A DNA stretch of 64,000 nt, taken from contig CAYPXO010000001.1 of NCBI GenBank assembly GCA_964414895.1, positions 26,999 to 90,998 on the forward strand. The letters are read 5' to 3'. The notes beneath the pieces are model-generated. The model was not told the origin of the DNA and did no database searches. It was given only the letters and a program-made list of their open reading frames with translations. Position numbers and translations under genes: made by a program. This document shows positions 4,460-39,011 of this stretch, in pieces. Position 1 is the first letter of the stretch, and every line of letters begins with the position of its first letter. The stretch is from an uncultured Pseudomonadales bacterium (GTDB lineage Bacteria; Patescibacteriota; Microgenomatia; UBA1400; CAYNMC01).

Positions 4460-4641
4460 AAAACACAAAACTAATCGAGCCAATACTGAGAGAAGACTAT
4501 GTCTCCCCTCACTTGAAAGAAGAAGCCCGCAAGCGGGAGATCGAACCCCTCCCGCCAGAGACAGAGGGTTTAAGTTGGGGGGAACGACTGTGGCTTTTTA
4601 TAGTGCGGGTGATTACTAAATTCTTAAGGAAATATGGTTAA
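4456..4641 (+). CDS. hypothetical protein
   Basis: 61-aa ORF translationally coupled to the following methyltransferase gene. Confidence 0.4.
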   Translation: MKNTKLIEPILREDYVSPHLKEEARKREIEPLPPETEGLSWGERLWLFIVRVITKFLRKYG

Positions 4642-10191: not shown

Positions 10192-11181
10192 ATGAAAAGA
10201 CTATTTGAAGGCAAAACGAAACTGATTACAATTCCCCTTATAGGGATTTTATCCCTTGCATTCCTCCCCATTGCCCTAGGGCTAGGACTGGGCTGGCTGG
10301 TTTATAAAAAGGTCGGCAGTCCGAAATTAAAATATTCCCTGCTGACAGTGATCGCCCTTTTTACCCTATTCACAGGCACTGCTTGGGTCTCAGCGATAAC
10401 CTCCCCCAGCAAGCCAGAATCAAAGCAAGAGCAAACTGCACAAGCCACCCCAACCCCTGAAGCCGAAACAGCAGCTGTAGAAATGACTCAAGAACCATCA
10501 CCCACTCAGGAATCGACATCAACCACAACGACCCCCGCAAATATGCAGACCGCTAAGGTGACCAGGGTCATCGACGGCGACACAATCGATGTCTCCTTTG
10601 ACGGAAAAACAGAAAGAATTAGGATTATAGGAATCGACACACCAGAGACAGTCGACCCCAGAAAACCAGTGGAATGCTTTGGGCAAGAAGCGTCAGCAGT
10701 TGCAAAAGAACAACTTACAGACGAAACAGTGCAGCTTGAATCCGATCCAACTCAAGGTGAAAGAGACAAATACAATCGGCTCTTGAGGTATGTGTGGATG
10801 GATGACGGCACTGTTGACTTCGGCAAACTGATGATCGCCACAGGTTACGCTCACGAATATACTTACAATCTCCCCTACAAATACCAAAAAGAATATAAAC
10901 AAGCCCAGAAGGACGCAGAAGAAGGCAAAAAAGGGCTGTGGGCTGATGATGCCTGTCCTCCACCCACTGAAAAACCCGCCACCGCACCAACCCAACCATC
11001 TTCAGGGGGAGGGTCGTGCAAATACTCCTGCACCAGTCCAGACAGGGACTGCGCCGATTTTTCAACCCATGCCGAAGCACAAGCGTTTTTTGAATGTTGC
11101 GGGTTTACCGCCACCAATGACCCGATGAGGCTAGACTCAGTCGGAATTGGAAACGGCATCGCCTGCGAATCATTACCATGA
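10192..11181 (+). CDS. membrane-anchored micrococcal (SNase-like) nuclease with C-terminal Excalibur Ca-binding domain
   Basis: Two N-terminal TM helices. SNase motifs (VIDGDTIDV; RIIGIDTPE; YNRLLRYVW). The C-terminal DRDCADF...GNGIACE fits the Excalibur pattern. Confidence 0.75.
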   Translation: MKRLFEGKTKLITIPLIGILSLAFLPIALGLGLGWLVYKKVGSPKLKYSLLTVIALFTLFTGTAWVSAITSPSKPESKQEQTAQATPTPEAETAAVEMTQEPSPTQESTSTTTTPANMQTAKVTRVIDGDTIDVSFDGKTERIRIIGIDTPETVDPRKPVECFGQEASAVAKEQLTDETVQLESDPTQGERDKYNRLLRYVWMDDGTVDFGKLMIATGYAHEYTYNLPYKYQKEYKQAQKDAEEGKKGLWADDACPPPTEKPATAPTQPSSGGGSCKYSCTSPDRDCADFSTHAEAQAFFECCGFTATNDPMRLDSVGIGNGIACESLP

Positions 11182-16930: not shown

Positions 16931-18115
16931 ATGCCATCAGCAACAGGAATCAGAGGAACAGCAACACCAGACGACGCATCAGTGGTCATGCCGACCAGGA
17001 AATATGATGTAGCCGATGTTATTTCGCTATTGGATGTCAACCGATATCCGCTTTTAGCGATCTTAACTAACGCAGGAAAAGACCCAGTGACTAAGCAAGG
17101 AAAAGCCATGAAAAAGGTCGAGACTCTCGACCCGCAATTTAAGTGGTTTGAGGACGAATTCGGAAAAAGACAATTGACAGGCTCAGGCACAGTCGACCCA
17201 GACGGAGGCAACTTAACCGTCACAGCGCAAACGCAATACTTGCAGGTAGGAGATGTGGTTTTGGTAGCACTACAGAAATGGGTATTCGAAGTGACCGCAA
17301 TTACCGACGCCAATGTGGTTGTCGTAGGGGCAGAGCTAGGAGGGGCAACGGGAGCAGCAGCATCAGCAGTAGGCGATGTTTGGTTGATCGGGAATGTGAA
17401 CGAGGAAGGTGCGGGCTTGCGAGCCATCAAATCGACCCTTGCAGCCGAGGTTTACAACTACTGTCAAATTTTCAGAACGCCAATCGGTATTACGGAGACA
17501 GCCAAAAATACCAAGATGTGGACTAAGGAAAATGACTTTGACTACCAGAGACGCAAGAAAGGGATCGAACACATGGTTGACATTGAAAGAGCATTCTTAT
17601 TCGGAAAGAGAGGAATTGTCACCACAGGAACGCATCCCAAGAGATTTTCAGCAGGAATTTTGAGCAGAATCAGCACTTACGCTACTGCCAGTGTGGACAC
17701 GGAATCAGAGTTTGAGACATGGCTAGAAAGCTTATTCGCACACGGAAATGTGGAGAAATACCTCTTTGCAGCAGCCTCGGTGATCTCGATGATCAACCAG
17801 TGGGCAAAAGGGAAACTCCAAGTAATGAGCAAAGACAAGACCTACGGACTCGCCATCGTCACTTACGAATCGCCACACGGAACGCTGCACATGATCAAGC
17901 ATCCGCTATTGACTGGAACGACCTATGGAAACTACGCAGTAGGATTAGACATGGAGACGCTGACATACCGCTACCTCAGCAACCGAGACACTAAACTCTT
18001 GACCAACCGACAAGCACGAGGGGAAGACAGCCAAGTAGACGAATACTTGAGCGAAGTTGGATTGCAAATGGAGCAGGAAAAAAGACACGCCATCATGAGC
18101 ATGGGTGCGCTCTAA
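16931..18115 (+). CDS. major capsid protein
   Basis: 394-aa protein following the scaffold, with a strong terminator-like structure downstream. Size and position are typical of an HK97-fold capsid protein; no motif check was possible. Confidence 0.6.
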   Translation: MPSATGIRGTATPDDASVVMPTRKYDVADVISLLDVNRYPLLAILTNAGKDPVTKQGKAMKKVETLDPQFKWFEDEFGKRQLTGSGTVDPDGGNLTVTAQTQYLQVGDVVLVALQKWVFEVTAITDANVVVVGAELGGATGAAASAVGDVWLIGNVNEEGAGLRAIKSTLAAEVYNYCQIFRTPIGITETAKNTKMWTKENDFDYQRRKKGIEHMVDIERAFLFGKRGIVTTGTHPKRFSAGILSRISTYATASVDTESEFETWLESLFAHGNVEKYLFAAASVISMINQWAKGKLQVMSKDKTYGLAIVTYESPHGTLHMIKHPLLTGTTYGNYAVGLDMETLTYRYLSNRDTKLLTNRQARGEDSQVDEYLSEVGLQMEQEKRHAIMSMGAL

Positions 18116-20705: not shown

Positions 20706-21125
20706 ATGCAAAAAAAAGATTTCATTTTCAAAAGACCAGAAACAGGCAAGACCGAGATCGTCAAGCGGGAACGCTGGCGATGGGTAGTGCATTATAAAGA
20801 CGGCACAAAACTTCACCAATTCGATGGCGAGGCGGGCATTTTTCACCAATTCAGAGAGATCGATCAAAGCAGAGTCGAGTCCTTCCAAATGGTCTCGGAC
20901 AAAAACCCAGAGGGCATCAACCTTTTAATTCCCCCAAACGGCGCAGACTTGATCCATTTTTACCGCAATGTAAGGCTGGCAGGCAGAAAAGATTGGATCA
21001 AACTATACTTCTTCGGCTGGAAAATCAAAGACCAAAGAGGCAGAAGCCTCCAAAAGCTAATTTGTATTTACCCCAACGACAAAATCGCATTGGTAGAAGA
21101 AGCAGAAGGAGGTGAGGCTGCGTGA
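20706..21125 (+). CDS. hypothetical protein
   Basis: 139-aa ORF overlapping the next start. Confidence 0.4.
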   Translation: MQKKDFIFKRPETGKTEIVKRERWRWVVHYKDGTKLHQFDGEAGIFHQFREIDQSRVESFQMVSDKNPEGINLLIPPNGADLIHFYRNVRLAGRKDWIKLYFFGWKIKDQRGRSLQKLICIYPNDKIALVEEAEGGEAA

Positions 21126-23710
21126 TTCTGGAGATTTTAATTAACACTGACGATGGCGAAGAAGACTACGATACAACTTGGTATCCCAACGGCTACTCCG
21201 CTAACCGAACCACAATCGGTCATGACGGCTCAGGAAGCTGCGATGCAGGCTTGTTATTTGATAATTCAGGTATTGCCGAGGCAGCCAGTGTCCTCAGTGC
21301 CAAAATAAGAGTAAAGTGCTCTGGCAACTCAACCAAAAGACCGACCCTGAAAATAAGAGGAATTCTGCAAGCCGACCCCGCAACCTGGGCGCAGGCAACC
21401 AGACCATCAACCAGACCCAAGACTACCGCATTTGTAGACTGGGATATAGCTGCAGACTGGGTGTTGAACACCTGGTATGAGTCCCCAGACATTACCGCCA
21501 TCATCCAAGAGATCGTCAACCAATCAGGCTTTGCAGGAGCAATCGCCCTAGTGATCGAGGACGACGGCAGTCCAAGCGGAGATTACGAGCTAATCTGGGA
21601 CTACAACAACGCTGCTGCCGATGCGCCAGAGTTGGTGGTAACTCTAGGATCAACAACAAAAATCCAGAAATCCCTCACCTATATTCTCGAACCGCAATTA
21701 GCCACGATCAATCTCCCAAAACAGCTTCAGTATGCGATTAACTCCACGCCTGCAGCGATTGAGAAAGAGCTGAGATATGTTATTTATCTGGGGGACACGA
21801 CGATCCAAAAAGCCCTTAAATACTGCATCAAAACCGAACCAGCAGCGATCACAAAATCCCTCAAGTATGCGATTAAAACTACCCCAGCAGCGAGCACAAA
21901 AGGATTACGATATTCAGTCATTCCCAACCTGCTGATCCAAAAAAGCCTGCAATATGCAATCAAGACAGAGCAGGTAATCCAGAAAATATTGCGATACTTT
22001 ATTAAGCCCGAAGAACCGCCAACAGAAAAGAGCAGAAATCAGGTCTTGAAAGTCGCCAGGATCGTCGCCGAGAATATCGATGATGGCAGAGAGGACAGCG
22101 ACAACAACTGGTATAAAGACGGCAACGCCAGCCACCTCATCACAATGGGCAACCTGGACGGCAAGACCCACACAGGAGCATTCCGCTTCCGCCATGTCGA
22201 CATCCCTCGCAATGCCAAGATATTCTTCGCCAGACTAAAACTGCGCTGCGCTTACACCGACGCCACTGACTTCACCACCAAACTAAGGATCAAGGGCATT
22301 AAAGAAGCCGATGTTAAACCATTTAGCAGCACCAACAAACCAAGCAGCAAAACAAAGACGGCAGACAGCGTCTCCTGGGAGATTTATAAAAAGTGGAACA
22401 TCAACGAGTGGGTGCAAACCCCTAACCTGCTTTTGATCGTGGAGGAGTTGGTGCGCCAGAGCCAGTGGAAGGCAGGCAATGCAATGGCGTTTGTGATTGA
22501 GGATGACGGCAGTGTAGCTGGCAACTCCAAAACCTGTTGGGACAGCTCAAGCGGGGTCGAGGATAAAGCCGAGCTGGAGATTTATTACTTTGATAAAGAA
22601 ATCAATGTCTCCTTCCTCCAGCTTAATGACCGAGACGGCGAAGAAGACTACAGAGATTTAGACCCACCAGACAACGCCTGGTATCCCGACGGCTGGGGCA
22701 ACAATCGAATCACCCTGGGAGACGACGGTGTGCATGAGCCAGAGTCGCCCAACGACGCAGGTTTTATCTTCTCCCCTGTTCAAATTCCTAAAGGAGCAAA
22801 AATCATCTCGGCTCGCATACTACTCACCGAAGATTCCCAAAACAATAACATGTGCAACTGGATTATAAAAGGATTCGCCGAAGACAATGCAGCTCCATTC
22901 AGTGGCGACGGCTCAAACCGCCCTTCAACCAGGACTAAAACCACTGCTAAAAAACAATGGTTTATAGGGCATGTGGAGGCAGGCATTTTACTCGGTGACC
23001 ACTGGACAGCCCAGAGCGTCTACGAATCACCAGAAATCAAGGAAATCATTCAGGAAATAGTGGATCGGGCAGGCTGGGTTGGAGACTCAAGCCAGAAGCT
23101 GGGCTTGGTGATTGAAAGCCACCACAGCCAGAGCGTCAAATACATCGTCGACTACAGCAAAGGAGGGGCAGGAAAATGGGCAGCGCAACTGATAATCGCC
23201 TGGCAATACATCAGGAGAACGACCACTGTTAAAAAGGATTTGGCAGCCTATGACAAAGCCAATTACCCAGAGTTTATTATCGTCCACCACTCAGCCACAG
23301 CCAGGGATACTACCCTATTTATTACCATCAAAAACGCCCATATAGGATATGGCTGGGAAGACATCGGCTACCACAAGTGGGTTTGTGGGGCAGCAGACGG
23401 AGATGGTATACTGAAACAAGGTAGACCAGACAACGAAATCGGAGCGCATTGCGACGACAACAAGATGAACTATCGCTCCATCGGAGCGTGTGTATGCGGA
23501 GACTTCCACTCGACAGGACTGAATGAAACCCCGACAGCAGCACAGTTAGCCACACTACAGCAACTCCTCGACGACACTCGAAAGCAGCGAGGTATTCCCA
23601 AAGAAAGAGTATTAGGACACGGCGAAGTTCCTGGTGCAGCCACCGACTGCCCAGGAGATAACCTGTTGCCTTATATCGTTAATTACCGAAACACAGGTAG
23701 TTTGACCTGA
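21122..23710 (+). CDS. virion-associated lysin or receptor-binding protein: three copies of the unrecognised ~185-aa domain, short tandem peptide repeats and a C-terminal amidase_2 (PGRP-type) N-acetylmuramoyl-L-alanine amidase
   Basis: The three domain copies lie at about 21122-21660, 22060-22600 and 22610-23200. The repeats xKxLxYxIKTxPAAx lie at 21660-22020. The amidase_2 region (23260-23700) carries VHHSAT, GYHKW, GAHC and TDCPGDN zinc-ligand motifs. Confidence 0.65.
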   Translation: MILEILINTDDGEEDYDTTWYPNGYSANRTTIGHDGSGSCDAGLLFDNSGIAEAASVLSAKIRVKCSGNSTKRPTLKIRGILQADPATWAQATRPSTRPKTTAFVDWDIAADWVLNTWYESPDITAIIQEIVNQSGFAGAIALVIEDDGSPSGDYELIWDYNNAAADAPELVVTLGSTTKIQKSLTYILEPQLATINLPKQLQYAINSTPAAIEKELRYVIYLGDTTIQKALKYCIKTEPAAITKSLKYAIKTTPAASTKGLRYSVIPNLLIQKSLQYAIKTEQVIQKILRYFIKPEEPPTEKSRNQVLKVARIVAENIDDGREDSDNNWYKDGNASHLITMGNLDGKTHTGAFRFRHVDIPRNAKIFFARLKLRCAYTDATDFTTKLRIKGIKEADVKPFSSTNKPSSKTKTADSVSWEIYKKWNINEWVQTPNLLLIVEELVRQSQWKAGNAMAFVIEDDGSVAGNSKTCWDSSSGVEDKAELEIYYFDKEINVSFLQLNDRDGEEDYRDLDPPDNAWYPDGWGNNRITLGDDGVHEPESPNDAGFIFSPVQIPKGAKIISARILLTEDSQNNNMCNWIIKGFAEDNAAPFSGDGSNRPSTRTKTTAKKQWFIGHVEAGILLGDHWTAQSVYESPEIKEIIQEIVDRAGWVGDSSQKLGLVIESHHSQSVKYIVDYSKGGAGKWAAQLIIAWQYIRRTTTVKKDLAAYDKANYPEFIIVHHSATARDTTLFITIKNAHIGYGWEDIGYHKWVCGAADGDGILKQGRPDNEIGAHCDDNKMNYRSIGACVCGDFHSTGLNETPTAAQLATLQQLLDDTRKQRGIPKERVLGHGEVPGAATDCPGDNLLPYIVNYRNTGSLT

Positions 23711-23724
23711 GAGGAGGTGAAAAT

Positions 23725-24408
23725 ATGCAATTTCAAGAATTTTTACAAGACCTAGACGCCAGAATCGCAGCCAGCAAAGTCACAGGCTTCTGGAAACCTG
23801 AAAACAAAGAGCGCTGGATTAACAAATCGGTGGTAAGAGCCTGCAATTATGCACGCTGGAAATTCCTCAGTAAGCACGCCACTCAAGCAATCGAGCTGGA
23901 GAGCGGAGAGATAAAAGAAAATTACTACCTTCCCTTTGACTACAAACCAGGCGGGATGATTTTAATCAAGGTCTATGACCCCGTCACCGAAAAGAGCCTA
24001 AAACACTTCAAGATCGACAACGACAGTTATCACTCAAAAGCCTACGAATACACCAGGGTTTATACCATCGTGGGAGACGAATACTTCCTCAACCTGCAAG
24101 AACTAGCCGAAGACTCAGGGCTGGCAGCCTCCGAAATGGAAGGCAAGATAATCGACCTTTATTACAAAAGACGCCCAGTGAAGCTGGTCGAGCCAACTGA
24201 TGAGCCAATCACCCCAGAAGAAATGGACGAGCCGATTATCAAGTTTGCTTTTTCAATCTGCCTTTCAAAGACGCCAGGAAGGGCAAAAGAAGCGGTCAAG
24301 GAAATCCAGGAAGCCAACTCGATGCTGCAGCAGATCAAGGACAGAGAGGAGGAAGAACCGCAGGCGGTGTTTAAGGGGCAGGCAACGAGCATGCGTTGGC
24401 AAAGGTAA
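23725..24408 (+). CDS. hypothetical structural protein
   Basis: 227-aa ORF preceded by GAGAGGAGGTGAAAA SD. Confidence 0.45.
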   Translation: MQFQEFLQDLDARIAASKVTGFWKPENKERWINKSVVRACNYARWKFLSKHATQAIELESGEIKENYYLPFDYKPGGMILIKVYDPVTEKSLKHFKIDNDSYHSKAYEYTRVYTIVGDEYFLNLQELAEDSGLAASEMEGKIIDLYYKRRPVKLVEPTDEPITPEEMDEPIIKFAFSICLSKTPGRAKEAVKEIQEANSMLQQIKDREEEEPQAVFKGQATSMRWQR

Positions 24409-25941: not shown

Positions 25942-27273
25942 ATGTCACTAACAGATCAAATCAAAAAGATATTCACTAACAGGGAGGTCGTAGACCAGCC
26001 CTTCCCTGAAGTGCAGGCGCACACTCACAACGGCATGGACTCCCTCCCCCTTGCACCGCAGTCGGTAGGCAGCAGCCAGCTCAAAGAAAATGCTGTCGGT
26101 GATGGTAATTTAATGGACTTGTCAGTGACTGAGGAGAAGCTGGCAGCAGCAGCCGTAGCCACCAGCAAAATAAAAGATGATGCGGTGACGGCAGCCAAAG
26201 TGTGGAAGGGCGGGGCTGTAATTACCCTCTCCGCCCAGATTGAAGAAGCGGTAATTATAACCGCCCACATTCAAGACCTGGCGGTGAAATGGGCAAAAAT
26301 CGGCAACCTTGAAGTCGGCAATAGCAAGATCATGGAGGCTGCAATCAGCAGAGCGAAAATCCAAGACCTAGCAGTCGACAACAGCAAAATAGAAAACGCC
26401 ACCATCACCAACGGAAAAATCGGTGAATTGCAGGTCGGCAATTCCAGGATTATGAACGCAGCCATCAGCACCGCTAAAATTCAAGACCTGGCGGTAGGCT
26501 GGGCAGAGATAGCAAATGCAGCCGTAGGAAACAGTAAGATCATGAACGCAGCCATCTCGACAGCCAAGATTCAAGACCTGGCAGTGACCAACGCCGAGAT
26601 CTCCTGGCTCAACGCAGGCAAAGTAACTGCAGGATCAATGTCAGCCGAGAGAATCTACGGCGGGATAATTTACTTAAATTCGGTTCAGGTTAATGTTTGC
26701 GGATCAGAAGCAGTTAATGTAGCAGGCAACATCTGGAAGACAGGCTGGTGCAGTTTTGTCATCAATCACCCACTTAAACCAGGACGCAAGCTGATTTATA
26801 CAGGTATAGAGTCACCAGAAGTGCTGCTCGCCCATAGAGGCTCAAACAAGCTAAGCAATGGAGAAAAAAGAATCGACCTACCAGATCACTTCCAAGCAGT
26901 CAGCGATGCCAGAAAAATAACCGCCTATGTGACCCCCAGGAGCGATTGTAAGGGCTTGTTTGTCAGTGAAGCGACCAAGAGCCATATCACAGTCAAAGAA
27001 AACGGCGGAGGCAACTCAAACAGCGACTTTGATTACATCATTTTCACCATCAGAAAAGGAGCGTTTGATTATGATTTTGAACCCGAAGGTGAGCTACTTA
27101 TCAAAGAAAAAGACGAAACCGAGGAGTCATTCAAAAAGAGATATTTTGATCATCGAGTCAAGCAGATCAGAGAAGCAGGCGGGGCGGATGTCAAAAAAAG
27201 AGTGACTGAATTTACCAGAGCCTGGCAGACCACGCCTGGCGTAGTAAAGGAGCAACATGTTCAAAAAAACTAA
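25942..27273 (+). CDS. tail fiber-like protein with internal tandem repeats
   Basis: Repeated 11-aa units (NSKIM(E/N)AAIS(R/T)AKIQDLAV...) typical of beta-helix fiber shafts; the DNA repeats lie at about 26280-26600. Confidence 0.5.
   Translation: MSLTDQIKKIFTNREVVDQPFPEVQAHTHNGMDSLPLAPQSVGSSQLKENAVGDGNLMDLSVTEEKLAAAAVATSKIKDDAVTAAKVWKGGAVITLSAQIEEAVIITAHIQDLAVKWAKIGNLEVGNSKIMEAAISRAKIQDLAVDNSKIENATITNGKIGELQVGNSRIMNAAISTAKIQDLAVGWAEIANAAVGNSKIMNAAISTAKIQDLAVTNAEISWLNAGKVTAGSMSAERIYGGIIYLNSVQVNVCGSEAVNVAGNIWKTGWCSFVINHPLKPGRKLIYTGIESPEVLLAHRGSNKLSNGEKRIDLPDHFQAVSDARKITAYVTPRSDCKGLFVSEATKSHITVKENGGGNSNSDFDYIIFTIRKGAFDYDFEPEGELLIKEKDETEESFKKRYFDHRVKQIREAGGADVKKRVTEFTRAWQTTPGVVKEQHVQKN
26280..26600 (+). 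repeat. imperfect in-frame tandem repeats inside the fiber gene
   Basis: Recurring ATTCAAGACCTGGCGGT / ATCATGAACGCAGCCATC blocks at about 96-nt periodicity. Confidence 0.5.
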
Positions 27274-28615: not shown

Positions 28616-31600
28616 ATGCCGACATTTTGGGATCAACTAAAAACAAACATACTAAGCCCTTTAGAAAAGGGAGTGTCCTCTATTGGTCAAACTTTGGGGG
28701 ATATTTTCAAGCCAGTAGGAGGGGCAGTCAGCGATCTATTCAAGCCAATCGGAACACTTAAACCAGAGCAGTCTGAATTTGCCATTAAAACAGAACAAGG
28801 CGAATACAGACCTTACACCAGCATCTATGCGGAATCAGCAGCACAAATGATAGGTCTTGGTGCAAGGGAAACTGATTTTTGGGAAAGACTCCCCCACGCA
28901 ACACTGGGGGCGGTCAAAGGATTTGGGGTGGGAGTAGCCAAAGCCCTCACCCTCGGCTGGTGGCAGCCAGAGGTTAAATATACCCACGACGCAGAAAAGA
29001 TGGCAGGCGAGCTGACCGAAATCGAGGGAGAGATTATGGGAACTATCGGGACATTCCTGATCGGCGGGGAGATCGTTCAGGCAGTGGGCAGAGGCATTCC
29101 CGCCGTCGCAAAATTCGCTCAGATCGCCCCCAAAACCTACCAGCTATTAACTAGCGGAGTCACCTTCGCAGGATTAGGGCAAGCGCACCACGACGCTACC
29201 CTGCTTGATGCACAAGGCAGAGCAAAAACATTCGTGGCAGACTTCGCCCTGGGCGGAGCATACTCGCTGGCGGGCATGAACCCAAACTACTTCAAAGGGA
29301 CAGGCATTATCGCCCCAGCAGCCTATGTCACTTCACTAATTAAGGGTGACACACCAGAAGACGCATTGAAAACAACGGCAGCCGTGATCGGACTGCATTC
29401 AATCAACTTCGCTCTAGCAAAAGCCTTCCCATCAAAAGCCGAGCAGCTGAGAAGAAACATGGACAAAGCAGCAACTGAGCAACTAGGAGTGACCAGAGCG
29501 CAAGCCAGAGAATACCTGGGAGTGACTGAAAAAATGTCGCCAGCAGAAATCAAGAAAGCCTGGCACAAAAAAGTGATCGAAATAACAAAGAGCTTCCCAG
29601 CCTATGTGGAGATGACACCCCAGCAAAATGCTAAATACACGGCAGACTACAACACCGCCAACCGAGCTTATGAGTTTTTAGCAAAGGTGCAAAACCCGAC
29701 AGGCTATACAGGCAAAACCTTCCGAAAAGAATTTGAGGACTTATTCTACGAACTCTGGGTAAAAGTCCCAGACAAGCGGGCATTGGTGGTCAGCGCCGTC
29801 AGAAACATGCCTGCAGGATTATCGATCCGATCCACCCTAACCCCAGAGCAAAGAGCGCAGATTATAGAAAAATTGGGAGGAGAAGAAGTCAAGACCAAAT
29901 TCGGATTGACGGCAGGCAAACTGACAAACCAGGACTTAATTACATTGGCAAAAGAAAAGAAAATCGAGGTGACACCGAGCAAAATAACACCAGAAAAAGC
30001 GATCACGAAAGCACCAGAGCCAAAAGTAGAACGCAAAGAAATCTGGTCACTCCCTGGCGACTTAATGCCAGCCAGAGGCAAGCCCACCTGGAAGCATAGC
30101 AAAATGCTCTGGAACACCATGCGCAATCAATACGGCATGACCAACACCTGGAGCAAAGACATCACTGTAAACAAAGGGGCGGTTTCCTGGATTATCGACA
30201 CCCTCGAAAACGGACTGGCAAGCAAAAAGGATTTAATGACCGAAGCCAGAAAAACCAAAGGTATCCGCATGGACAGCAGGCAATACAAAAAGCTCTACGC
30301 CATGTTTAAGTCCAGAGATTATGACATCGAAGGCTACAAGAAAGTGATGTCGGTTTTGAAAGGAATTAAACCAGCGATAATTGAAAAAACCATTGAGCCT
30401 GCAAAATCAGCACCAAAAGCCCCGCCAATCAAACTAAAAACAGCTGAGGAGTTGATAAAAGAGGATAGATTAAGACCCCAAACTTCAGGATTCGGGCAAG
30501 GAAAATTCTGGCAATACAGAGCTGAGGACGGCATTTATACAGTAGCCCCAAATAAAGAGGAAGCGATAAAAAGAGCCAACGAAGCCCTGGCAGCAAAACC
30601 AAGCAAACCAGCAACCAAGCCCATATCGAAACCAGAGCCAGAGGTGCAGCCAACCGAAGGCTTCCAATTTGATGCTGACTCAACCGCCAAAGCAGGAAAA
30701 GTCACAGTCAAAGACCCTGGTATTTTTGAGAAAGGCACGCTATTCAGACAGAAAGGGAAAGATGCGGGAGTATCCTACTTGATGGGCAAGAACACCCAAA
30801 CAGGCAATACAGAAGTCCAGACAATTTACTTCGACAAAAAGCTATTCACTGAGGGGGAGGCAGCCAAGTGGTGGACGAAAAACGGCGATAAATTCACCAA
30901 ACCTTGGAGCATTAAAGAGGAAAAACTGCCAGCAAAGCCAGAACCGAAACCAGCAGCCAAGCCAAAAGAAACACTGGCAGGGCGCTTTTATCACGGCACA
31001 TCAAGAGAAGCAGCCCAAGCGATCCAAAAAGAAGGCTTTGTCATTGAGAGCTTCGAAGAAGGCAGAGGATTAGGCAATGCAATCTACCTCAGCCCGAAAC
31101 CAGAATACGCCAGAAACTACGCCATCAAAGGCGGGATCAGCAAAGAAGGCGAGATCATGGGAGTGGTGTTGGAGACAAAAGTAAAAGTCGACAATGTCCT
31201 CCGCTTAAAAGACGCAGCAGCCAGGAGAAAACTCGCTGACCTTGCCATGAAAGAAACAGGCTTGCCAGAAGACGAGGCATTGACAAAATATGTTCAAGAC
31301 CAGGGCTACGATGCCATTCTCACCCAGGAGGATATTATCGGCACGGCGACTCCATCGCTGGCAATTTTTGATCCCAGTAAAATCAAAGTGGTAGGGATCG
31401 CCGAACCAGTAATGGCAGGCGAAAAACCGACTCCATTGCCAAAAAGAGATGGCAAATTCACGGCGCAGGAAAAGAAGGCAGCCAAAGCCGAGGAGATCAG
31501 ACTTAAATACCGACCAGAAGAAAAAGAGTTGTTAGAAGCAGAGCGAGTCCCCAGCGTCGGCGAGATTATGAAAAGCAAGAAATTCCAGGATCGTATAAAA

Positions 31601-34339
31601 GGCAAGGTCAAGGCGTCGAGCCAGATGAGATTGGATGAGGCAAAGCCTGCACCTCCAGGAAGCCCGCCAAGACCGCCAAAAGAAGTGCCTATCGCTCAAG
31701 CCCCTCCTCCACCAGAAGGAAGCGGACTGGAGGCAATCGACAAAATGGTCGGCAAAGTCGGCGCACCGCAAAAAATAGGAGAATTCCTCAAAGGACTAAC
31801 GCCTAAATTCAGACGCAATTTTACCGACAGATTTGCCTTAATGAAAGACTTCGAGGAAAAAGTGAGCAAGCTACAAGGGCAGCCAATCGACATCAACTCC
31901 AGTCCCTATGTGGCAGCCAGACTGTATGCGGGCAGATTCGGGACGATAGAGGCAGCCTTCCGAGATTTGCAAAAGATCGTCACACCAGTGAGGAAACATC
32001 GACCAGACTTCACCCGCTATGTGTTGGCACAGCGTGCCATCGAAAGAGCGGATCGGGGCTTTGATAACCCTGCAGGAGTGACCAAAGAGCAGGCAGAGCT
32101 GGCACTCACCGAGCTGAAAGCCAAAGTTGGTGACAAGGTTTATAAGCAATTCGAGCAAGGAGGGCAAGCGATCCAAAACTGGTCGATCAGACAAATCCTA
32201 GAACCAATGCGAGACACAGGGTTGATCAGCAAAAAGGCATTCAACGCCATAGTTGAAAAGAATAAAAACTGGATGCCGTTCCATGTCCTCGACTACCTCC
32301 CCGATACCAAACAAGCAGACCAGATGCAATCGGGCAGCGAAACCTTCTCGGTCAGCAAACAGGGCGTGATTAAAGGATTAAAAGGCACGGAGAAAATCAT
32401 CCGTGACCCCTTCGAATCAATAGTCGATAACCTAAGCAAAGCTATCAGCCTAACCAAGAGAAATGAGGTGGCACGCAAGCTCATTGACCTAAGAAAAACC
32501 CACCCAGAAGCAAAAGAGTCTATAAAATACCTGCACAAAAACGCCAAAGCCCCCAAAGATTGGGACACCATCAGCGCATTTATTAACGGCAAGGTAACCC
32601 GCTGGGCTGTGCCAAAAGGGTTGAGTGACGCCATGCACTCCATGAGTCCAGTCGAAGCGGGACTCTTGGGTAAACTGGCGAAGACATCAACCAAAGCATT
32701 CAAAGCAGGAGTGACGACTTTTTACATTCCCTTCACCCTAACCAATGCCATCAGGGACTACCAGACAGCAACAGTCGTCAACAAATGGGGATTCAACCCA
32801 GTGACCTGGCTATCGGGATTCAAAGACAGCATTAAAGGAGCATTCAGGTGGGATTCAAAAGCCTACGACGAATTCCTGCGCAACGAGGGAGGCTACGGAG
32901 GCTACATCGGCAGCACCAGACAGCTCTCGATAGCAGCCAAAGAGTTATTTACACCGAGCTGGTGGACAAAAACAAAAGCGGTCATCAACCCTCTTAATTT
33001 GATCAGCAACTTCGCCGAGGCAATCGAACTGTCGCCAAGACTGGGAATTTATAAAAAGGGAATTAAAAAGCCAGGAGTGACCGAGTTGGAGGCAGCCTTC
33101 GAAGCCAGAAACTCGACTGTCGACTTTGCAAAATCAGGTAAAGAGATGCGGATTATCAACCAGTGGATTCCCTTTGTAAACGCCAGGTGGCAAGGAGTCC
33201 TCAGAGTCAAAGACGCCTTCAAAGAGCATCCGTTCAAATCGGCAATAAAAGCAATGGCAATGATTGTCATGCCAGGAGTGGCAACCTATTTTTACAACAT
33301 CCTCAATTACGAAGAACTGTGGGATGACATCCCCCAGTGGGCAAAAGATAACTACTTCATCGTTATTCTAGGATCGGAGCTGGATGAAGAAGGCAAAACA
33401 GTCCCAAAGGTGCTGCAGATTCCCAAAGGCGACATGGGGCAGATTTTTTTCAATCCCCTGCAATACACCTTTGAGTATGTCAGAAAGCAAGAACCGCAAA
33501 ACCTATTTAAACTAGCCTTAGAGTGGACAAGCCAAATCTCCCCGATCCCATTCACCAGGGACGGCGAATTATCGGGCAGCTCATTCCTGGCTGGGGCGCT
33601 ACCGCCAGCATTGAAAACCCTGGTCGAGGAAGTCACTAACATGAACCTATTTACAGGCTTCCCGCTCATTCCAAGAAAACTGGAGAAGGTCGCCCCAACC
33701 GAGCAATACAACGAAAGGACTCCAGGTGTGGCAGTAGGAATTGGGCGAGCCGTCGGCATCAGCCCAATGAGACTGGCTCATGTCGCAAGCGGATTGTTCG
33801 GCTCAAGCAGCAGGTATGTTTATAACCCAGCTGACCTGCTCGGTTTATCAGTAAAAAGATTTGTCAGAACTCAGGGCGGGGCAAAAGAAAGAGAAGCCTG
33901 GAAGGTGCGGGATGAAGCCGAAATCGGCTATAACACCACCCGACTATTCGTCCAGCAAGCGCTGCAAGCAGGTGATCTGCAGAAAGCCCAGAGCCTGGCA
34001 ACCGAGTGGAATAACAAAGTTCAGCAATACATTCCCCAGATTGTGCCTTACCTGATGGCAGACGATCCGAAAGAGGCGGTGAGCTTCCAGAAAAGCATCA
34101 TGTTTGACGCTGCAGACCTAAGACGACTTATGAAGCTTAATGCTCCTCCAGGAGCAGCGCTAAAGCCACCCAGTCGAGCCGTAGGCACACCTTCAAGGCA
34201 AGCTGACCCATTAGGGATATTCGGAGGGCAAAGTCCAGCAGGAGCGCCTCCAACACCGACAGGGACACAACCGACGATGGGGCAAATGTTCCCGACAGAG
34301 GGAGGAGGACAAAACGATCCACTAGGATTGTTTAAGTAA
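28616..34339 (+). CDS. giant (1907 aa) virion or ejection protein with a degenerate J-like domain and a KptA/Tpt1 (PARP-fold)-like domain; possible tape-measure or internal-core analogue
   Basis: Single uninterrupted ORF. J-like segment at about 29480-29690 (EYLGVTEKMSPAEIKKAWHKK...ANRAYEFLAK, with HPD replaced by FPA). KptA-like segment at about 30975-31215 (RFYHGTSREAAQAIQKEGF...AIYLSPKPE, compare E. coli KptA FLYHGTASRFLDEIKKQGL...YVHLSADE). Multiple Pro/Lys linkers and a Gly/Pro-rich C-terminus. Confidence 0.6.
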   Translation: MPTFWDQLKTNILSPLEKGVSSIGQTLGDIFKPVGGAVSDLFKPIGTLKPEQSEFAIKTEQGEYRPYTSIYAESAAQMIGLGARETDFWERLPHATLGAVKGFGVGVAKALTLGWWQPEVKYTHDAEKMAGELTEIEGEIMGTIGTFLIGGEIVQAVGRGIPAVAKFAQIAPKTYQLLTSGVTFAGLGQAHHDATLLDAQGRAKTFVADFALGGAYSLAGMNPNYFKGTGIIAPAAYVTSLIKGDTPEDALKTTAAVIGLHSINFALAKAFPSKAEQLRRNMDKAATEQLGVTRAQAREYLGVTEKMSPAEIKKAWHKKVIEITKSFPAYVEMTPQQNAKYTADYNTANRAYEFLAKVQNPTGYTGKTFRKEFEDLFYELWVKVPDKRALVVSAVRNMPAGLSIRSTLTPEQRAQIIEKLGGEEVKTKFGLTAGKLTNQDLITLAKEKKIEVTPSKITPEKAITKAPEPKVERKEIWSLPGDLMPARGKPTWKHSKMLWNTMRNQYGMTNTWSKDITVNKGAVSWIIDTLENGLASKKDLMTEARKTKGIRMDSRQYKKLYAMFKSRDYDIEGYKKVMSVLKGIKPAIIEKTIEPAKSAPKAPPIKLKTAEELIKEDRLRPQTSGFGQGKFWQYRAEDGIYTVAPNKEEAIKRANEALAAKPSKPATKPISKPEPEVQPTEGFQFDADSTAKAGKVTVKDPGIFEKGTLFRQKGKDAGVSYLMGKNTQTGNTEVQTIYFDKKLFTEGEAAKWWTKNGDKFTKPWSIKEEKLPAKPEPKPAAKPKETLAGRFYHGTSREAAQAIQKEGFVIESFEEGRGLGNAIYLSPKPEYARNYAIKGGISKEGEIMGVVLETKVKVDNVLRLKDAAARRKLADLAMKETGLPEDEALTKYVQDQGYDAILTQEDIIGTATPSLAIFDPSKIKVVGIAEPVMAGEKPTPLPKRDGKFTAQEKKAAKAEEIRLKYRPEEKELLEAERVPSVGEIMKSKKFQDRIKGKVKASSQMRLDEAKPAPPGSPPRPPKEVPIAQAPPPPEGSGLEAIDKMVGKVGAPQKIGEFLKGLTPKFRRNFTDRFALMKDFEEKVSKLQGQPIDINSSPYVAARLYAGRFGTIEAAFRDLQKIVTPVRKHRPDFTRYVLAQRAIERADRGFDNPAGVTKEQAELALTELKAKVGDKVYKQFEQGGQAIQNWSIRQILEPMRDTGLISKKAFNAIVEKNKNWMPFHVLDYLPDTKQADQMQSGSETFSVSKQGVIKGLKGTEKIIRDPFESIVDNLSKAISLTKRNEVARKLIDLRKTHPEAKESIKYLHKNAKAPKDWDTISAFINGKVTRWAVPKGLSDAMHSMSPVEAGLLGKLAKTSTKAFKAGVTTFYIPFTLTNAIRDYQTATVVNKWGFNPVTWLSGFKDSIKGAFRWDSKAYDEFLRNEGGYGGYIGSTRQLSIAAKELFTPSWWTKTKAVINPLNLISNFAEAIELSPRLGIYKKGIKKPGVTELEAAFEARNSTVDFAKSGKEMRIINQWIPFVNARWQGVLRVKDAFKEHPFKSAIKAMAMIVMPGVATYFYNILNYEELWDDIPQWAKDNYFIVILGSELDEEGKTVPKVLQIPKGDMGQIFFNPLQYTFEYVRKQEPQNLFKLALEWTSQISPIPFTRDGELSGSSFLAGALPPALKTLVEEVTNMNLFTGFPLIPRKLEKVAPTEQYNERTPGVAVGIGRAVGISPMRLAHVASGLFGSSSRYVYNPADLLGLSVKRFVRTQGGAKEREAWKVRDEAEIGYNTTRLFVQQALQAGDLQKAQSLATEWNNKVQQYIPQIVPYLMADDPKEAVSFQKSIMFDAADLRRLMKLNAPPGAALKPPSRAVGTPSRQADPLGIFGGQSPAGAPPTPTGTQPTMGQMFPTEGGGQNDPLGLFK

Positions 34340-34343
34340 ACCT

Positions 34344-35465
34344 ATGAAAAAGAAACTAAAACTACCAATCACATTCAGCCAAAACGATCCCAGGTGGAAG
34401 AACAGCCCACTAGGGACTAAAGGGACGATAGGAAATTACGGCTGCCTCATGGTTGACGGCACGATGGTGGTTAACTACTACGGCTTCCGAGAAACACCGC
34501 TGACCATGAACCAGAAACTGACAGAGAACGGCGGATACATGAGTGGCAACCTGTTCGTGTGGGGGGCAATCCCCAAGCTATTCCCAGGGCTGAAATACAA
34601 AGGAAAATGGTCAAATAAAAACCCACTGACTCAAGCCCAAATGAACCAGATTAGAGAGGCAATTAACAAAGGCTACCCAGTATTCCTGCAAATTGACACC
34701 ATTCCTTCAACCTCAGCTTTAGACGAACACTGGGTGCTGGCAATCGGTTACGACGGCGATGACTTTATAATTCAAGACCCCTGGGACGGAGCAGAAAAAA
34801 GAATCACCAGCTGGGGTGTGACACCGCAAAAGCTAATTTATTCTTGGTGTTGGTATGAAGGCAAACCAGCTGAAACCGATCCAGCAGAAGGCTGCTTAGT
34901 GCCAAACACCCCAGAGTGGCGAGAAAAATACGAGGACATCGTCAGCTCAGCCACGAAATGGGCAGACTCCCTCAAGATTATGGAGATCGAAGGCGACCCA
35001 TCAACGACCCCAACCGACAAAGTTAAGAGTGTCATTGCAGGGTATAAATCAAGGGAAACTGATCTTAAAAACCAGCTCAGCGATAGACAAAAAGACCTGG
35101 ATGTTGCCAACCAGGAAATTAAAAACCGCATAGAACAAGTTAGCAGACTGGAAGGCGATCTGCGAGAAAAGGATAAATACTATAAAGACCTTATCAATGC
35201 GCTAAAATCGGACATCAAAAATCTGCCAAAAATACTGGAGCAAGCGCAGGGTAGGATCGGGGTGCTGGAGGGGGAAGTCGACGAAGCCAACAAAGCCAAA
35301 GGCAGGGCGCTAAACCAGGCAGCAGAGTATAAAAGTCGCCTTGAAACCTGCGAAAAAGGACAACTGCCAGTGCCAACAAAGAACCTAATAAATACAGCAA
35401 TAGAAATTTTGATTAACCTAATCAAGGATTTTTTCAAAAAGAAGGAGGTGAAAAAAGATGGGTAG
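34344..35465 (+). CDS. endolysin: peptidase C39-like (Peptidase_C39_2) cell-wall hydrolase with C-terminal coiled coil
   Basis: FSQNDPRW...GNYGCLMV...HWVLAIGYDGDDFIIQDPWDG gives the Cys/His arrangement of C39-like phage lysins. Sits immediately upstream of the holin. Confidence 0.6.
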   Translation: MKKKLKLPITFSQNDPRWKNSPLGTKGTIGNYGCLMVDGTMVVNYYGFRETPLTMNQKLTENGGYMSGNLFVWGAIPKLFPGLKYKGKWSNKNPLTQAQMNQIREAINKGYPVFLQIDTIPSTSALDEHWVLAIGYDGDDFIIQDPWDGAEKRITSWGVTPQKLIYSWCWYEGKPAETDPAEGCLVPNTPEWREKYEDIVSSATKWADSLKIMEIEGDPSTTPTDKVKSVIAGYKSRETDLKNQLSDRQKDLDVANQEIKNRIEQVSRLEGDLREKDKYYKDLINALKSDIKNLPKILEQAQGRIGVLEGEVDEANKAKGRALNQAAEYKSRLETCEKGQLPVPTKNLINTAIEILINLIKDFFKKKEVKKDG

Positions 35466-35739
35466 TTTTAGTGATATCGGCAAAGCATATCCAGAGTGGA
35501 AGAAGGATGCCTGGCAGCTCTTGCGAACCTTTATCTCGGCATTTTTAGTCGGCGGATCGATAGTTTTAATCAATGCGGGAACGGATGCATTCATGAGCTG
35601 GGCAAACTTCCTGCACCTTTTAGTCTACCCCTTCCTGCTTGCAGGAGCGGTGGCAGGAGTGAACGCCGTTGGGAAGCTGCTGCGAAGTTTATTCGGAGCA
35701 GAAACAAAAGACAGCTTAATTGATAAGCTGCCGTTCTAA
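35458..35739 (+). CDS. holin-like protein (two TM helices)
   Basis: 93 aa with two hydrophobic helices and a charged C-terminus; overlaps the endolysin stop. Confidence 0.5.
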   Translation: MGSFSDIGKAYPEWKKDAWQLLRTFISAFLVGGSIVLINAGTDAFMSWANFLHLLVYPFLLAGAVAGVNAVGKLLRSLFGAETKDSLIDKLPF

Positions 35740-35761
35740 CAAAGGCGGTGAGCAGAAAAAT

Positions 35762-36013
35762 ATGGCAAAATCAAAAGAAGCAACTATGATGGACATTATC
35801 GAAAGAGTCGCCAAACTTGAGGAGCGGGTGGATGGTGGCTTTGGCTACATAAAAGAGGAGCTAAAGGATATAAAAGAGAACCACCTCTACACCCTTCAAA
35901 CAGATGTGAACGACCTTAAAATTAAGGTTAACACCCTCGCAGTAAAAATGGGGGTAATTGTGGCAGTTGTAACGATTGTAATCGACATCGCAATTCGCTT
36001 CCTTTTCAAATAA
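35762..36013 (+). CDS. XhlA-like lysis-associated protein (coiled coil plus C-terminal TM)
   Basis: Coiled-coil N-terminus and a C-terminal TM helix (GVIVAVVTIVIDIAI), reminiscent of the XhlA hemolysin family. Start trimmed to the ATG at 35762. Confidence 0.4.
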   Translation: MAKSKEATMMDIIERVAKLEERVDGGFGYIKEELKDIKENHLYTLQTDVNDLKIKVNTLAVKMGVIVAVVTIVIDIAIRFLFK

Positions 36014-36836: not shown

Positions 36837-37925
36837 CTACGCCTTTTTTAGTGTCAGCTCAAAAGCCAACCCACCTGACTTCTCCACCAGTTTATACTCA
36901 AAACGAGCATCGTCCTGCAGCTGAAAGGATTTGATCTCCTCCTTAACATTTTTCATTATCATTTTAGGGTCTTGAGACTTGCGAATTAAGGGGTGCTTGA
37001 GCATGGCGTCCCGAAGATCGTCCGTGACCATGTGGGTGTAGATCATGGTAGTATCAACCTTGCGGTGACCGACGATCCGCTGGACTTTGGAAATCGCCAC
37101 ATCCACCCGCAGAAGCTCGGTTATAAACGAGTGACGGAAGGCATGGGCATGGAAACGGCGGTCAACATGAAGACCAGCCCGCCTAGCACGCTCCCGCAGC
37201 GCTTTATTAACCATCGTCCCGCCGACCCGACGATTGGGACTGGTGCGCCGAAAGTGCATAGAAACGAATAAGGGCGCTGTTGGTGGAGCGCCCTTGCGGT
37301 GAGCATTGACCCAAGATTTAAGTTTAATAACCATGTCGGGAGGGATCGGCACGATCCGCTGCTCGTCGGTTTTAGTCTCCCGAATAATAAACTCCTCCGA
37401 TCCAAAATTCAGGTCGCCAAGATTGAGATTAAGCACCTCCCCGACACGGCAGCCAGTCTTAGCCAGAAACTCAAAGAAGATAGACCACATCTCATCGACC
37501 TCGACATACTTAGGATACAAGTGAGGTACATCAGGGCAGTTGTTGGTGGGCTTGCGGGCAGGAGGATTGATGACCTTTTCAATCTCCTCCAGCGAAAGAG
37601 TCTGGTATAAAACGATTTTTTTCTTAGGACGCAAGGCGTTCAGGCGGGAGGTAATATCCTTAAGAGGCAAATGCTGCTCGGCAATCAGGAAGCGAATAAA
37701 GGAATTAAGGGTAGTGATGAGGACATTGATGTAGTTGGGGGAAAGGTTGGATTTTTTATAGGAGCGGATCTGGTCACGGATATTTTCAAAAGAAAAATCA
37801 CCCTCACCCAAGTCCGAGAAGAACTTCGAAAGCCACTGGCGTCTAACTTTAACAGTCTGCTCGGACAGGTCTCGATCATATTTAATGAACTCGATGTAAT
37901 CCTGCTGGAGATTCGAGTATTTCAT
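36837..37925 (-). CDS. int: tyrosine-type site-specific integrase
   Basis: Catalytic region HAHAFRHSFITEL...VGHRKVDTTMIYTHM (R..H-x-x-R..Y). Last phage gene, lying next to the disrupted host comM. Confidence 0.85.
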   Translation of the reverse strand: MKYSNLQQDYIEFIKYDRDLSEQTVKVRRQWLSKFFSDLGEGDFSFENIRDQIRSYKKSNLSPNYINVLITTLNSFIRFLIAEQHLPLKDITSRLNALRPKKKIVLYQTLSLEEIEKVINPPARKPTNNCPDVPHLYPKYVEVDEMWSIFFEFLAKTGCRVGEVLNLNLGDLNFGSEEFIIRETKTDEQRIVPIPPDMVIKLKSWVNAHRKGAPPTAPLFVSMHFRRTSPNRRVGGTMVNKALRERARRAGLHVDRRFHAHAFRHSFITELLRVDVAISKVQRIVGHRKVDTTMIYTHMVTDDLRDAMLKHPLIRKSQDPKMIMKNVKEEIKSFQLQDDARFEYKLVEKSGGLAFELTLKKA

Positions 37926-38029
37926 AGCCCTTTACGGGCAGGATTTAGATTGATTATATCAGAAAAACAACTACCACTTGACATCGTTGACTTTTTGTGA
38001 TTGACTGAAAATAGCAACATTTACATTCA

Positions 38030-38085
38030 GGAGTTAGCTGCCCCTTGAAGGGGAAGATTAGAAGCAAGAAACCTTCGAGAACTCC
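38030..38085. other. putative prophage-host attachment junction inside comM
   Basis: Both the GC-content shift and the divergence of the comM reading frame from the conserved ...LFLDELSEF continuation occur here. Confidence 0.35.
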
Positions 38086-39011
38086 GACAACTCGTCCAAA
38101 AACAAAACTCCCCGGTGAGCCAAGGAAATTTCTCCAGGAGCCGGTTTAGAGCCACCGCCAATAAGACCAATCCGAGAAATAGTGTGGTGAGGACTTCTAA
38201 AAGGGCGGTGTTTAACAATGGAAAATTGAGCGGGTAAGTTGCCAGTTATAGAATAAGTCTTGGTTACTTCTAATGCCTCTTCTTCTGTCAACTTAGGTAA
38301 AATTGAAGGAAAACTGCGCGCCAGCATTGTTTTACCGGCACCCGGGGGGCCAATCATCAAAACATTGTGTCCGCCAGCCGCCGCTATTTCCAAAGCTCTT
38401 TTGGCATTCTCCTGACCGCTAATCTCTGCCATATCAAATTCAAAATCAAATTTCTTGTTTAGTTGACTAAATCTGACATGCTTTTGGAAAATTATCTCTT
38501 TTAATCCCGAAAAATGATGAAAAAGCTGCAATAGAGAAACAACCGGAAATACCTTTATTCTTTTTATAATCGCTGCTTCTTTGGCATTGACTGCTGGCAA
38601 AAACAGATTTCTTAACTTTAACTGTCTAGCTAAGATCGCCATTGGCAGCACCCCATTAGTATGGCGAAGAGAGCCATCTAGCGACAATTCCCCTAAAACT
38701 AGAGAGTCAGAAAGAGAACTATCAAGCTGGCCTGAAGCTATCAAAATCCCCAAAGCCATCGGTAAATCATAAGCCGGTCCTTCTTTGGGTAAATCGGCGG
38801 GAGTTAAATTAATAGTAATTCTGTGAATAGGAAAATCGCAGCCAGTATTTTTTAAAGCTGCCCTTATTCTTTCTTTGGCTTCTTCAACTGCTTTGCCAGG
38901 CAAACCAACAATGTTAAAACGGGGAAGGCTCTTTGAAGAAATATCTACCTCTACCTCAACAGGGACAGATTCCAAACCAACAGTTGCTCCGGAAATAACT
39001 TTAGCCAACAT
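38058..39011 (-). pseudogene. comM: comM/yifB Mg-chelatase-like ATPase, N-terminal ~315 aa only; truncated by prophage insertion
   Basis: Canonical ComM N-domain and Walker A (MIGPPGAGKT). The ORF ends right after VLFLDELSEF, where full-length ComM continues for about 180 more residues. Confidence 0.7.

Follow-up and report, generated by a model that had tools for sequence, protein, structure and literature searches.

The closest described counterparts of the gene analysed here are the LPD38 polyvalent proteins, such as gp47 of phage phi24B and gene product 69 of the Bcep22-like phage JC1, which are very large, multidomain proteins from the structural region of podoviruses that carry LPD38 near the C terminus together with enzymatic effector cargo (Iyer, Burroughs, Anand, de Souza and Aravind, 2017, J Bacteriol, PMC5512222). 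The LPD38 domain was defined from polyvalent proteins and reported only in their phage type, whose commonest protein-modifying domain is an ADP-ribosyltransferase (ART), and an H-Y-D catalytic configuration has been described for such ARTs (PMC5512222). This report concerns a 64,000-nucleotide stretch of DNA (the window; contig CAYPXO010000001.1 of assembly GCA_964414895.1, positions 26,999 to 90,998), in which nt 28616-34339 form one open reading frame (ORF) of 1907 codons plus a stop on the forward strand, as are all features below unless stated otherwise. We estimate at about 65% the probability that this gene encodes a large polyvalent ejection protein of an SU10-like short-tailed prophage in a Microgenomates-group bacterium of the candidate phyla radiation (CPR), and that the protein delivers an ART effector. 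What the analysis established directly, and what this reading draws on, is described in turn below: the identities and folds of the domains, the catalytic residues, the mosaic architecture of the protein, its gene context and the lineage of the host.

The strongest domain match in the protein is to LPD38 itself. Pfam scans were run on both the full-length protein and excised segments, with bit scores compared with the gathering cut-offs, and LPD38 (PF18857; aa 1567-1762, nt 33314-33901) exceeded its cut-off of 27 bits in both, with 77.6 bits (E 1.7e-21) for the full-length protein and 80.3 bits for the excised segment. It lies within a C-terminal conserved module (aa 975-1850, nt 31538-34165) that opens with a proline-rich linker and is conserved in relatives; its aa 1052-1713 match PHROG 9854 at E 3.8e-64 (phrog_9854, a PHROGs family of unassigned function). 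A core of ~760 aa in this module matches large proteins in 48 phage records by tblastn, and the matches listed are 24-27% identical. Phages of Pelagibacter, Bacillus and Vibrio are represented, and those recognised among the records are podophages. In Pelagibacter phage HTVC034P the matching protein is gp44 (1229 aa), whose gene comes after those for tail tubular proteins A and B, an internal-virion-protein-B-like protein and a 580-aa protein and before that for the tail fibre; in the T7 gene order this is the place of gp16. Ejection proteins of the T7 gp16 type are also similar in size to the protein described here and are likewise encoded in the late operons of short-tailed phages, whereas comparison with PDB sequences gave no similarity of the C-terminal module to any solved structure, the T7 core proteins included. 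In the podophage phi24B, the LPD38-bearing gp47 was found in virions by proteomics, was absent from the electron cryomicroscopy map, and was proposed to be an ejection protein with a conduit role (bioRxiv 10.64898/2026.04.10.717836); the likeness between gp47 and the large protein lies in this shared Pfam domain only.

The predicted effector is a domain at aa 790-928 (nt 30983-31399) that is an ADP-ribosyltransferase fold, with ART-PolyVal (PF18760) as its best-matching family. When aa 780-945 were excised and scanned, ART-PolyVal matched over profile positions 8-132 of 140 (E 4.8e-7, 31.1 bits, gathering cut-off 31.2), accompanied by weaker matches to PARP (7e-4) and Exotoxin A (0.015), and a PARP match was also returned for the full-length protein (aa 791-844, E 0.017, 15.0 bits). 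At the equivalent position, ART-PolyVal was found in four close homologs and PARP in five. A profile of the family searched against Protein Data Bank (PDB) sequences matched ART enzymes of the H-Y-E clade in 64 of 64 cases, with PARP10 the best (E 0.003). An AlphaFold2 model of the domain had the expected strand order (predicted local distance difference test score, pLDDT, 74.7; predicted template modelling score, pTM, 0.72), with a helical insert of ~35 residues between strands (aa 867-895), and Foldseek aligned it to 104 PDB entries at E <= 1e-3 with a TM score of about 0.5; the top 50 listed are tankyrases, PARP4, MbcT, diphtheria toxin and ExoA.

The catalytic positions of this fold are also present. 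The H-Y-D triad is intact and consists of H793 (nt 30992-30994), Y824 (nt 31085-31087) and D919 (nt 31370-31372), with H793 in the predicted strand at aa 790-795, Y824 in that at aa 823-826 and D919 just past that at aa 914-917. In an alignment of 28 sequences comprising the closest relatives, the His is kept in 28/28, the Tyr in 27/28 and the Asp in 25/28, the remaining three having Glu (1) or Asn (2), and the YHGT, GxxxYL, GYD and FDP motifs around the triad are retained even though identity across the rest of the domain has fallen to about 30%. Catalytic activity is predicted from this triad. Loss of the catalytic acid was considered at one stage since the majority family allele reads GETYISIFDP where this protein has TATPSLAIFDP, suggesting a change of a PARP-like Glu to Thr or Ser, but it was ruled out when the 25 closest relatives proved to vary ahead of the strand, the conserved acid being the Asp of FDP, as published.

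An exhaustive HMMER search of 1.84 billion representative proteins recovered 53 relatives of the domain at E <= 1e-3, the best with 37% identity, and ART-PolyVal was detected in 8 of the ten closest (above cut-off in 4 of them, with scores of up to 99 bits). These relatives are fused to Phage_Mu_F, Phage_min_cap2, LPD1 or RadC, which are head-associated and polyvalent-protein contexts. Among cultured phages the sole match was to Microbacterium phage Schubert (one phage in two records), in a capsid maturation protease / MuF-like fusion protein. The domain shares with ART-PolyVal / Tox-ART-HYD2 proteins a near full-length profile match, the H-Y-D triad, the ART fold and fusions to MuF, minor capsid protein 2 or LPD1. 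The model for the proposed mechanism is the Alt protein of phage T4, an ART that is carried in the phage head, enters the cell together with the DNA and acts on proteins of the host, RNA polymerase among them (summarised in PMC5512222); Alt is of the R-S-E clade and a stand-alone myovirus protein, whereas the ART described here is of the H-Y-D type and sits inside a podovirus scaffold protein.

Comparison with homologs showed that the ART domain occupies a variable position within an otherwise conserved protein. Of 57 homologs of the large protein, 34 align at both ends and the 22 most distant match the C-terminal module only. Identity to relatives is 41-89% over aa 1-470 and 45-90% over aa 975-1850 (59-90% in the 34-relative count), while for the ART segment it is 27-34%, in the 11 relatives whose alignment spans the whole segment; the others have no such segment or only a 41-aa piece of it. 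Those same 11 proteins have N- and C-terminal modules with 45-90% identity. With the conserved flanks as anchors, a central slot falls at aa 471-974 (nt 30026-31537), which is 504 aa long here and ranges from 29 to 601 aa among relatives, with Pro/Lys/Ala/Glu-rich linkers between its domains and a right edge formed by the conserved junction FT(A/K)QE(K/Q)xAAKAEE (FTAQEKKAAKAEE). In minimal members of ~1400 aa the slot is only 29-52 aa and contains no ART. Other members carry other ART alleles, and one (P0033) has two tandem ARTs. In another (P0034) an ART is followed by a Pol-beta-type nucleotidyltransferase (NTP_transf_2, 23.6 bits, cut-off 21), a kind of domain that in the 2017 survey was confined to the polyvalent proteins of conjugative elements (PMC5512222). 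As judged from these alignments, the family consists of a fixed scaffold, made up of the N- and C-terminal modules, with an exchangeable, recombination-prone cargo cassette, whose rapid turnover is in keeping with an arms race against the targets or defences of the host.

The slot also holds a BRX-like small domain (PF08381; aa 721-760, nt 30776-30895), which scored 24.9 bits in the full-length protein (E 1.3e-5) and 30.4 bits in the excised segment, against a cut-off of 24.5, and which is present in several relatives of the large protein as well. The BRX family takes its name from the plant BREVIS RADIX proteins, and a literature search on BRX domains in bacteria or phages returned nothing informative. 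A weak DUF2188-like match (E 0.058) lies in the slot at aa 632-663 (nt 30509-30604) and may be a further small cargo domain or a chance match.

Within the scaffold, the region at aa 291-361 (nt 29486-29698) is a J-like fold. The AlphaFold2 model of this region (pLDDT 85-91 over aa 291-361) contains helix I (aa 294-301), helix II (aa 309-325), a loop and a long helix III (aa 335-359), and when it was submitted to Foldseek, J domains made up ~40 of the top 50 PDB matches (best E 0.17, probability 1.00). Structure evidence for this fold is stronger than sequence evidence: Pfam DnaJ (PF00226) matched the full-length protein at aa 300-357 with E 0.033 and 14.7 bits and the excised segment with E 7e-4 and 20.1 bits, under the 27.8 cut-off, and such a sub-threshold match recurs in 3 of the 5 homologs scanned. 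A profile of the family over this region ranked DnaJ chains first among PDB sequences, at E only 0.7-1.2, and hhalign gave a probability of 69% (E 4e-5) against ten J-domain sequences entered by hand. The region shares with J domains and with Tim16/Pam16 the order of helix I, helix II, loop and helix III, an LGV...A...IKKAW...K pattern and a basic helix II, here with the basic face EIKKAWHKKVIEITK; it differs from J domains in its sub-cut-off score, in its longer loop and helix III, in its location inside a phage structural protein, and in the replacement of HPD. The HPD position is occupied by F327-P328-A329 (nt 29594-29602), with [FY]P[AP] in 34/34 relatives, so by the criterion normally applied this J-like fold does not count as a functional J domain. 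The earlier note on this DNA, which had been made from the sequence alone, had already described a degenerate J-like region with FPA in place of HPD, and the sub-threshold Pfam matches, predicted helices and Foldseek alignments bear that description out. The segment is 52-89% identical in relatives, although P0035 is without it, and it is part of the conserved scaffold, outside the cargo slot.

The remaining parts of the scaffold are recognised by conservation. The N-terminal module (aa 1-262, nt 28616-29401) is Gly/Ala-rich with moderately hydrophobic segments; it is 49-84% identical in 33 relatives and 31% identical in P0035, and it gave no Pfam match when scanned as an excised segment. The 28616-34339 frame and its 1907-aa product, as first proposed, are exact, and homologs that share the opening sequence MPxFW(D/E)xLKTNI back the start codon. 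Past the J-like domain, a conserved segment (aa 362-470, nt 29699-30025) has invariant NPxxYTxK, VPxKR and PAGLS motifs, which are kept in relatives. Two D[IL]FKP[VI]G motifs lie at aa 29-46 (nt 28700-28753), and the Pro/Gly-rich C-terminal tail (aa 1851-1907, nt 34166-34336) has two DPLG[IL]F motifs (nt 34205-34222 and 34316-34333) around a conserved PTMGQMFP. Another branch of the large-protein family has an IKNLL / IRSLI-type motif pair instead, and both copies in a given protein are always of the same type. The repeated end motifs may be docking or processing signals. When the whole protein was compared with PDB sequences, the sole match was to a designed repeat protein, by chance.

The earlier note considered the combination of domains in this protein to be undescribed for phage internal proteins; this overstated the case, as both ARTs and LPD38 had been reported in polyvalent proteins, and an ART in a giant phage protein was described in 2017 (PMC5512222). 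Current understanding is not overturned. With those polyvalent proteins the present one has in common an LPD38 domain above cut-off in a large multidomain protein (J-like, BRX-like, ART and LPD38) encoded among late or structural genes. Unlike the 2017 examples, it is comparatively small and simple, with one enzymatic domain where they have up to 15 domains, it is without a MuF or zincin peptidase, a methylase-helicase pair or a lytic transglycosylase, and its host is a CPR bacterium. What is new is the CPR host lineage, the clean scaffold-plus-slot organisation, the HPD-less J-like fold in the scaffold and the BRX-like domain, the last two of which are not mentioned in the text of that study (PMC5512222).

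The genomic setting of the gene is that of a prophage. The window from 1 to about 38000 is a prophage of the SU10-type podovirus kind: its GC content is 0.45-0.49 and its coding strand is markedly richer in A than in T (AT skew 0.25-0.40 over 1-36000); the host DNA to its right (38000-64000) has a GC content of 0.32-0.41 and little AT skew. Pfam and PHROG scans identified genes for a large terminase subunit, an SU10-type portal (a weak match), an SU10-type major capsid protein (16931-18115; PF17236, E 5.3e-43; PHROG 1328), an SU10-type adaptor (23725-24408; PF24175, a weak match at E 1.6e-4 and 22.6 bits, cut-off 27) and a tail fibre protein (25942-27273; PHROGs 7660 and 892, E 1e-22). Inside this structural module, the large gene has the tail fibre genes on one side and a probable lysis cassette on the other. 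SU10 is a short-tailed phage. Pfam, PHROG and NCBIfam scans of the large gene and its neighbours revealed no tail tube, sheath or tape-measure family, as had been remarked before, and this absence is expected because the SU10-type capsid, portal and adaptor are those of a short-tailed phage. The NCBIfam scan, which covered the large gene and three of its upstream neighbours, gave no match for the large gene itself.

Immediately downstream of the large gene is a gene for a 373-aa C39-like peptidase with a coiled-coil C-terminal half (34344-35465; PF13529, E 5.5e-11), followed by two small membrane ORFs (35458-36013), one of 93 aa with two hydrophobic segments and then one of 97 aa with a C-terminal hydrophobic segment. 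Together these genes (34344-36013) are probably a lysis cassette, a reading favoured because of the coiled-coil half of the peptidase and the two small membrane ORFs that follow it; a role for the peptidase as a Gly-Gly processing protease of the polyvalent protein was also considered and, on the same sequence features, appears less likely. Within the structural region, an 862-aa protein (21122-23710) has a C-terminal N-acetylmuramoyl-L-alanine amidase domain (Amidase_2, E 2e-17) and a weak DNRLRE-domain match at its N terminus, and is probably a virion-associated tail cell-wall hydrolase. The prophage also encodes a fusion of a ParB_N domain and an N6_N4 DNA methylase (4634-5890) and a staphylococcal-nuclease homologue (10192-11181).

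The right end of the prophage is marked by a tyrosine integrase gene on the reverse strand (36837-37925; PF00589, E 2.1e-29), which is conserved in a Woesebacteria (L002) and a Daviesbacteria (L003) genome. This integrase adjoins a truncated comM-like gene (36837-39011 for the pair, reverse strand) that retains a ChlI domain and the first 120 of 207 Mg_chelatase profile positions, and comM is the apparent attachment site for phages of this family because the same integrase-comM junction recurs in those two genomes (17660-19837 in L002 and 17131-19313 in L003). The sources of homologs of the large protein are named as Candidatus Woesebacteria, Daviesbacteria and Microgenomates. When genomes were scanned, three from the CPR proved to have the same gene block, one of them a complete 0.9-Mb Woesebacteria chromosome, in the order amidase-bearing protein, adaptor, 491-aa protein, fibre, 354-aa protein, large gene, C39 peptidase and small ORFs; the integrase-comM junction is also kept in 2 of these 3 genomes. 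Homologs of the large gene are present on two IMG/VR viral contigs of 33-35 kb as well.

Several other explanations of the large protein were weighed against these observations. The ART region had been read in the earlier note as the NAD-binding lobe of a Tpt1/KptA-type RNA 2'-phosphotransferase whose N-terminal R-H-R-R lobe was lost, with host RNA among its possible substrates. Tpt1 belongs to the same broad ART clade and shares with this domain the NAD-binding fold of the superfamily and an HGT motif on strand 1; Tpt1 chains also appear lower in the PDB profile list (E 0.08-0.7), and PF01885 reached E 0.027-0.045 in two homologs, in matches that span only about 25-30 residues around HGT. Neither the excised ART domain nor the full-length protein has a PF01885 match at E <= 10, whereas ART-PolyVal aligns near end to end. 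The second catalytic position is a Tyr, as in PARP and diphtheria toxin, where KptA has His in the alignment given in that note, and the third is the Asp of ART-PolyVal. Upstream of the domain there is a Pro/Lys linker and the BRX-like domain rather than the N-terminal, RNA-binding lobe of Tpt1, and the nearest relatives of the domain are MuF and polyvalent-protein ARTs. The assignment to a PARP-fold ART holds, as does its location, although the domain reaches about aa 928 rather than ending near 870; the missing lobe is not a loss, because the domain belongs to ART-PolyVal, a family that never had it. A Tpt1/KptA-type enzyme acting on RNA is thus extremely improbable. In the fold comparisons that the earlier note had proposed, AlphaFold2 and Foldseek gave J-like and ART folds for the two regions, which also have weak DnaJ and PARP-family profile matches; H793 and Y824 lie on predicted strands and D919 just past one, with Asp where that note expected Glu. 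Domain content and gene context favour the suggestion of that note that the protein is an ejected effector which ADP-ribosylates a host macromolecule.

The large protein could instead be purely structural, serving as a conduit of the ejection apparatus or as a length-determining stand-in for a tape measure, with the ART and J-like domains as inactive relics or spacers. The minimal members show that the scaffold works without cargo, the J-like domain is without HPD, and a conduit role was proposed for phi24B gp47 by its authors. The retention of the triad and its motifs in an otherwise ~30% identical domain argues for selection on catalysis, and repeated swaps of the cassette to other ART alleles and to a nucleotidyltransferase indicate turnover of effectors rather than drift of a spacer; a structural scaffold and effector cargo are, moreover, compatible, and we regard a solely structural role as unlikely. 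A further proposal is that the J-like domain is a decoy or regulator of Hsp70, in which the basic helix II would dock on host DnaK without ATP hydrolysis and so block or redirect the chaperone. The predicted fold and the retained basic face of helix II (EIKKAWHKKVIEITK) speak for this, but the domain is in the conserved scaffold of all 34 relatives, outside the effector slot, which weakens the decoy idea, its sequence support is sub-threshold (20.1 against 27.8 bits), and HPD is indispensable for productive Hsp70 interaction, so that a decoy is distinctly improbable. A last alternative is that the ART is a toxin or virulence factor like Tox-ART-HYD2, expressed during lysogeny and used by the CPR lysogen on neighbours or on its own cell. 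CPR bacteria are often episymbionts. In addition, caudoviruses have the HYD2 ART family in common with the polymorphic toxin systems of bacteria, and this family has been suggested to act as a toxin or in virulence (PMC9503650). Here, however, the ART is embedded midway in a 1907-aa protein of a late operon, there is no adjoining secretion or immunity gene at the large gene, and the ART has its relatives in fusions with head proteins, all of which leaves this alternative with hardly any likelihood.

The reading of the gene as encoding an ejected polyvalent protein can be put as a sequence of events. The scaffold, made up of the Gly/Ala-rich, amphipathic N-terminal part with the J-like fold (aa 1-470) and the ~880-aa LPD38 module, would be packaged in the capsid and would exit through the short tail at infection, and the cargo domains, on their flexible Pro/Lys-rich linkers, would enter the host alongside the scaffold and the DNA. 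There, at an early stage of infection, the ART domain would transfer a single ADP-ribose from NAD+ to a target in the host, which is more likely to be a protein than a nucleic acid, in an action analogous to that of phage T4 Alt and as has been proposed for polyvalent proteins generally. We infer packaging, ejection, enzyme activity and target in this scheme from the features described above.

Several points weigh against this scheme. Packaging of the 1907-aa protein in virions and its ejection are predicted from homology and gene position. The hydrophobic segments of the N-terminal module (aa 95-113, 140-165 and 250-268 by hydropathy) are weak, with a Kyte-Doolittle peak of 1.2-1.4 and no clear transmembrane helices. 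A profile of the C-terminal module gave no credible match among PDB sequences, and since this module has no detectable relative of solved structure, its role as an ejection scaffold rests on gene position and on the LPD38 proteins of other phages. The ART domain departs from the ART-PolyVal family in its ~35-residue helical insert, in its score, which falls 0.1 bit under the gathering cut-off, and in being a rare allele, with 53 relatives and at best 37% identity; ART-PolyVal was also not reported by the Pfam scan of the full-length protein. Finally, an intact triad alone does not prove activity.

A more speculative role can be envisaged for the J-like fold, which could act like Tim16/Pam16 at the mitochondrial import motor, in this case at the cytoplasmic end of the ejection channel, where it would engage or gate host DnaK; we consider this very improbable. 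On that model DnaK might help to pull in and refold the unfolded polyvalent protein, perhaps with the leading DNA, or the chaperone might be held inactive, outcomes that we likewise view as long shots. If true, this would make it the first case of phage protein ejection with a chaperone-coupled step, and the conserved HPD-less J-like fold in any case raises a checkable question about the involvement of chaperones in this process.

To our knowledge, few phages of CPR bacteria are known and none is in culture. The features of this locus suggest that a family of CPR phages uses the same strategy as phages of well-studied hosts, in which a large multi-effector protein is injected. The ART cassette, with its intact H-Y-D triad, can be expressed and assayed alone. 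In addition, the fixed scaffold and exchangeable slot of this family could be mined for effectors, and hence for the host defences or targets that they answer.

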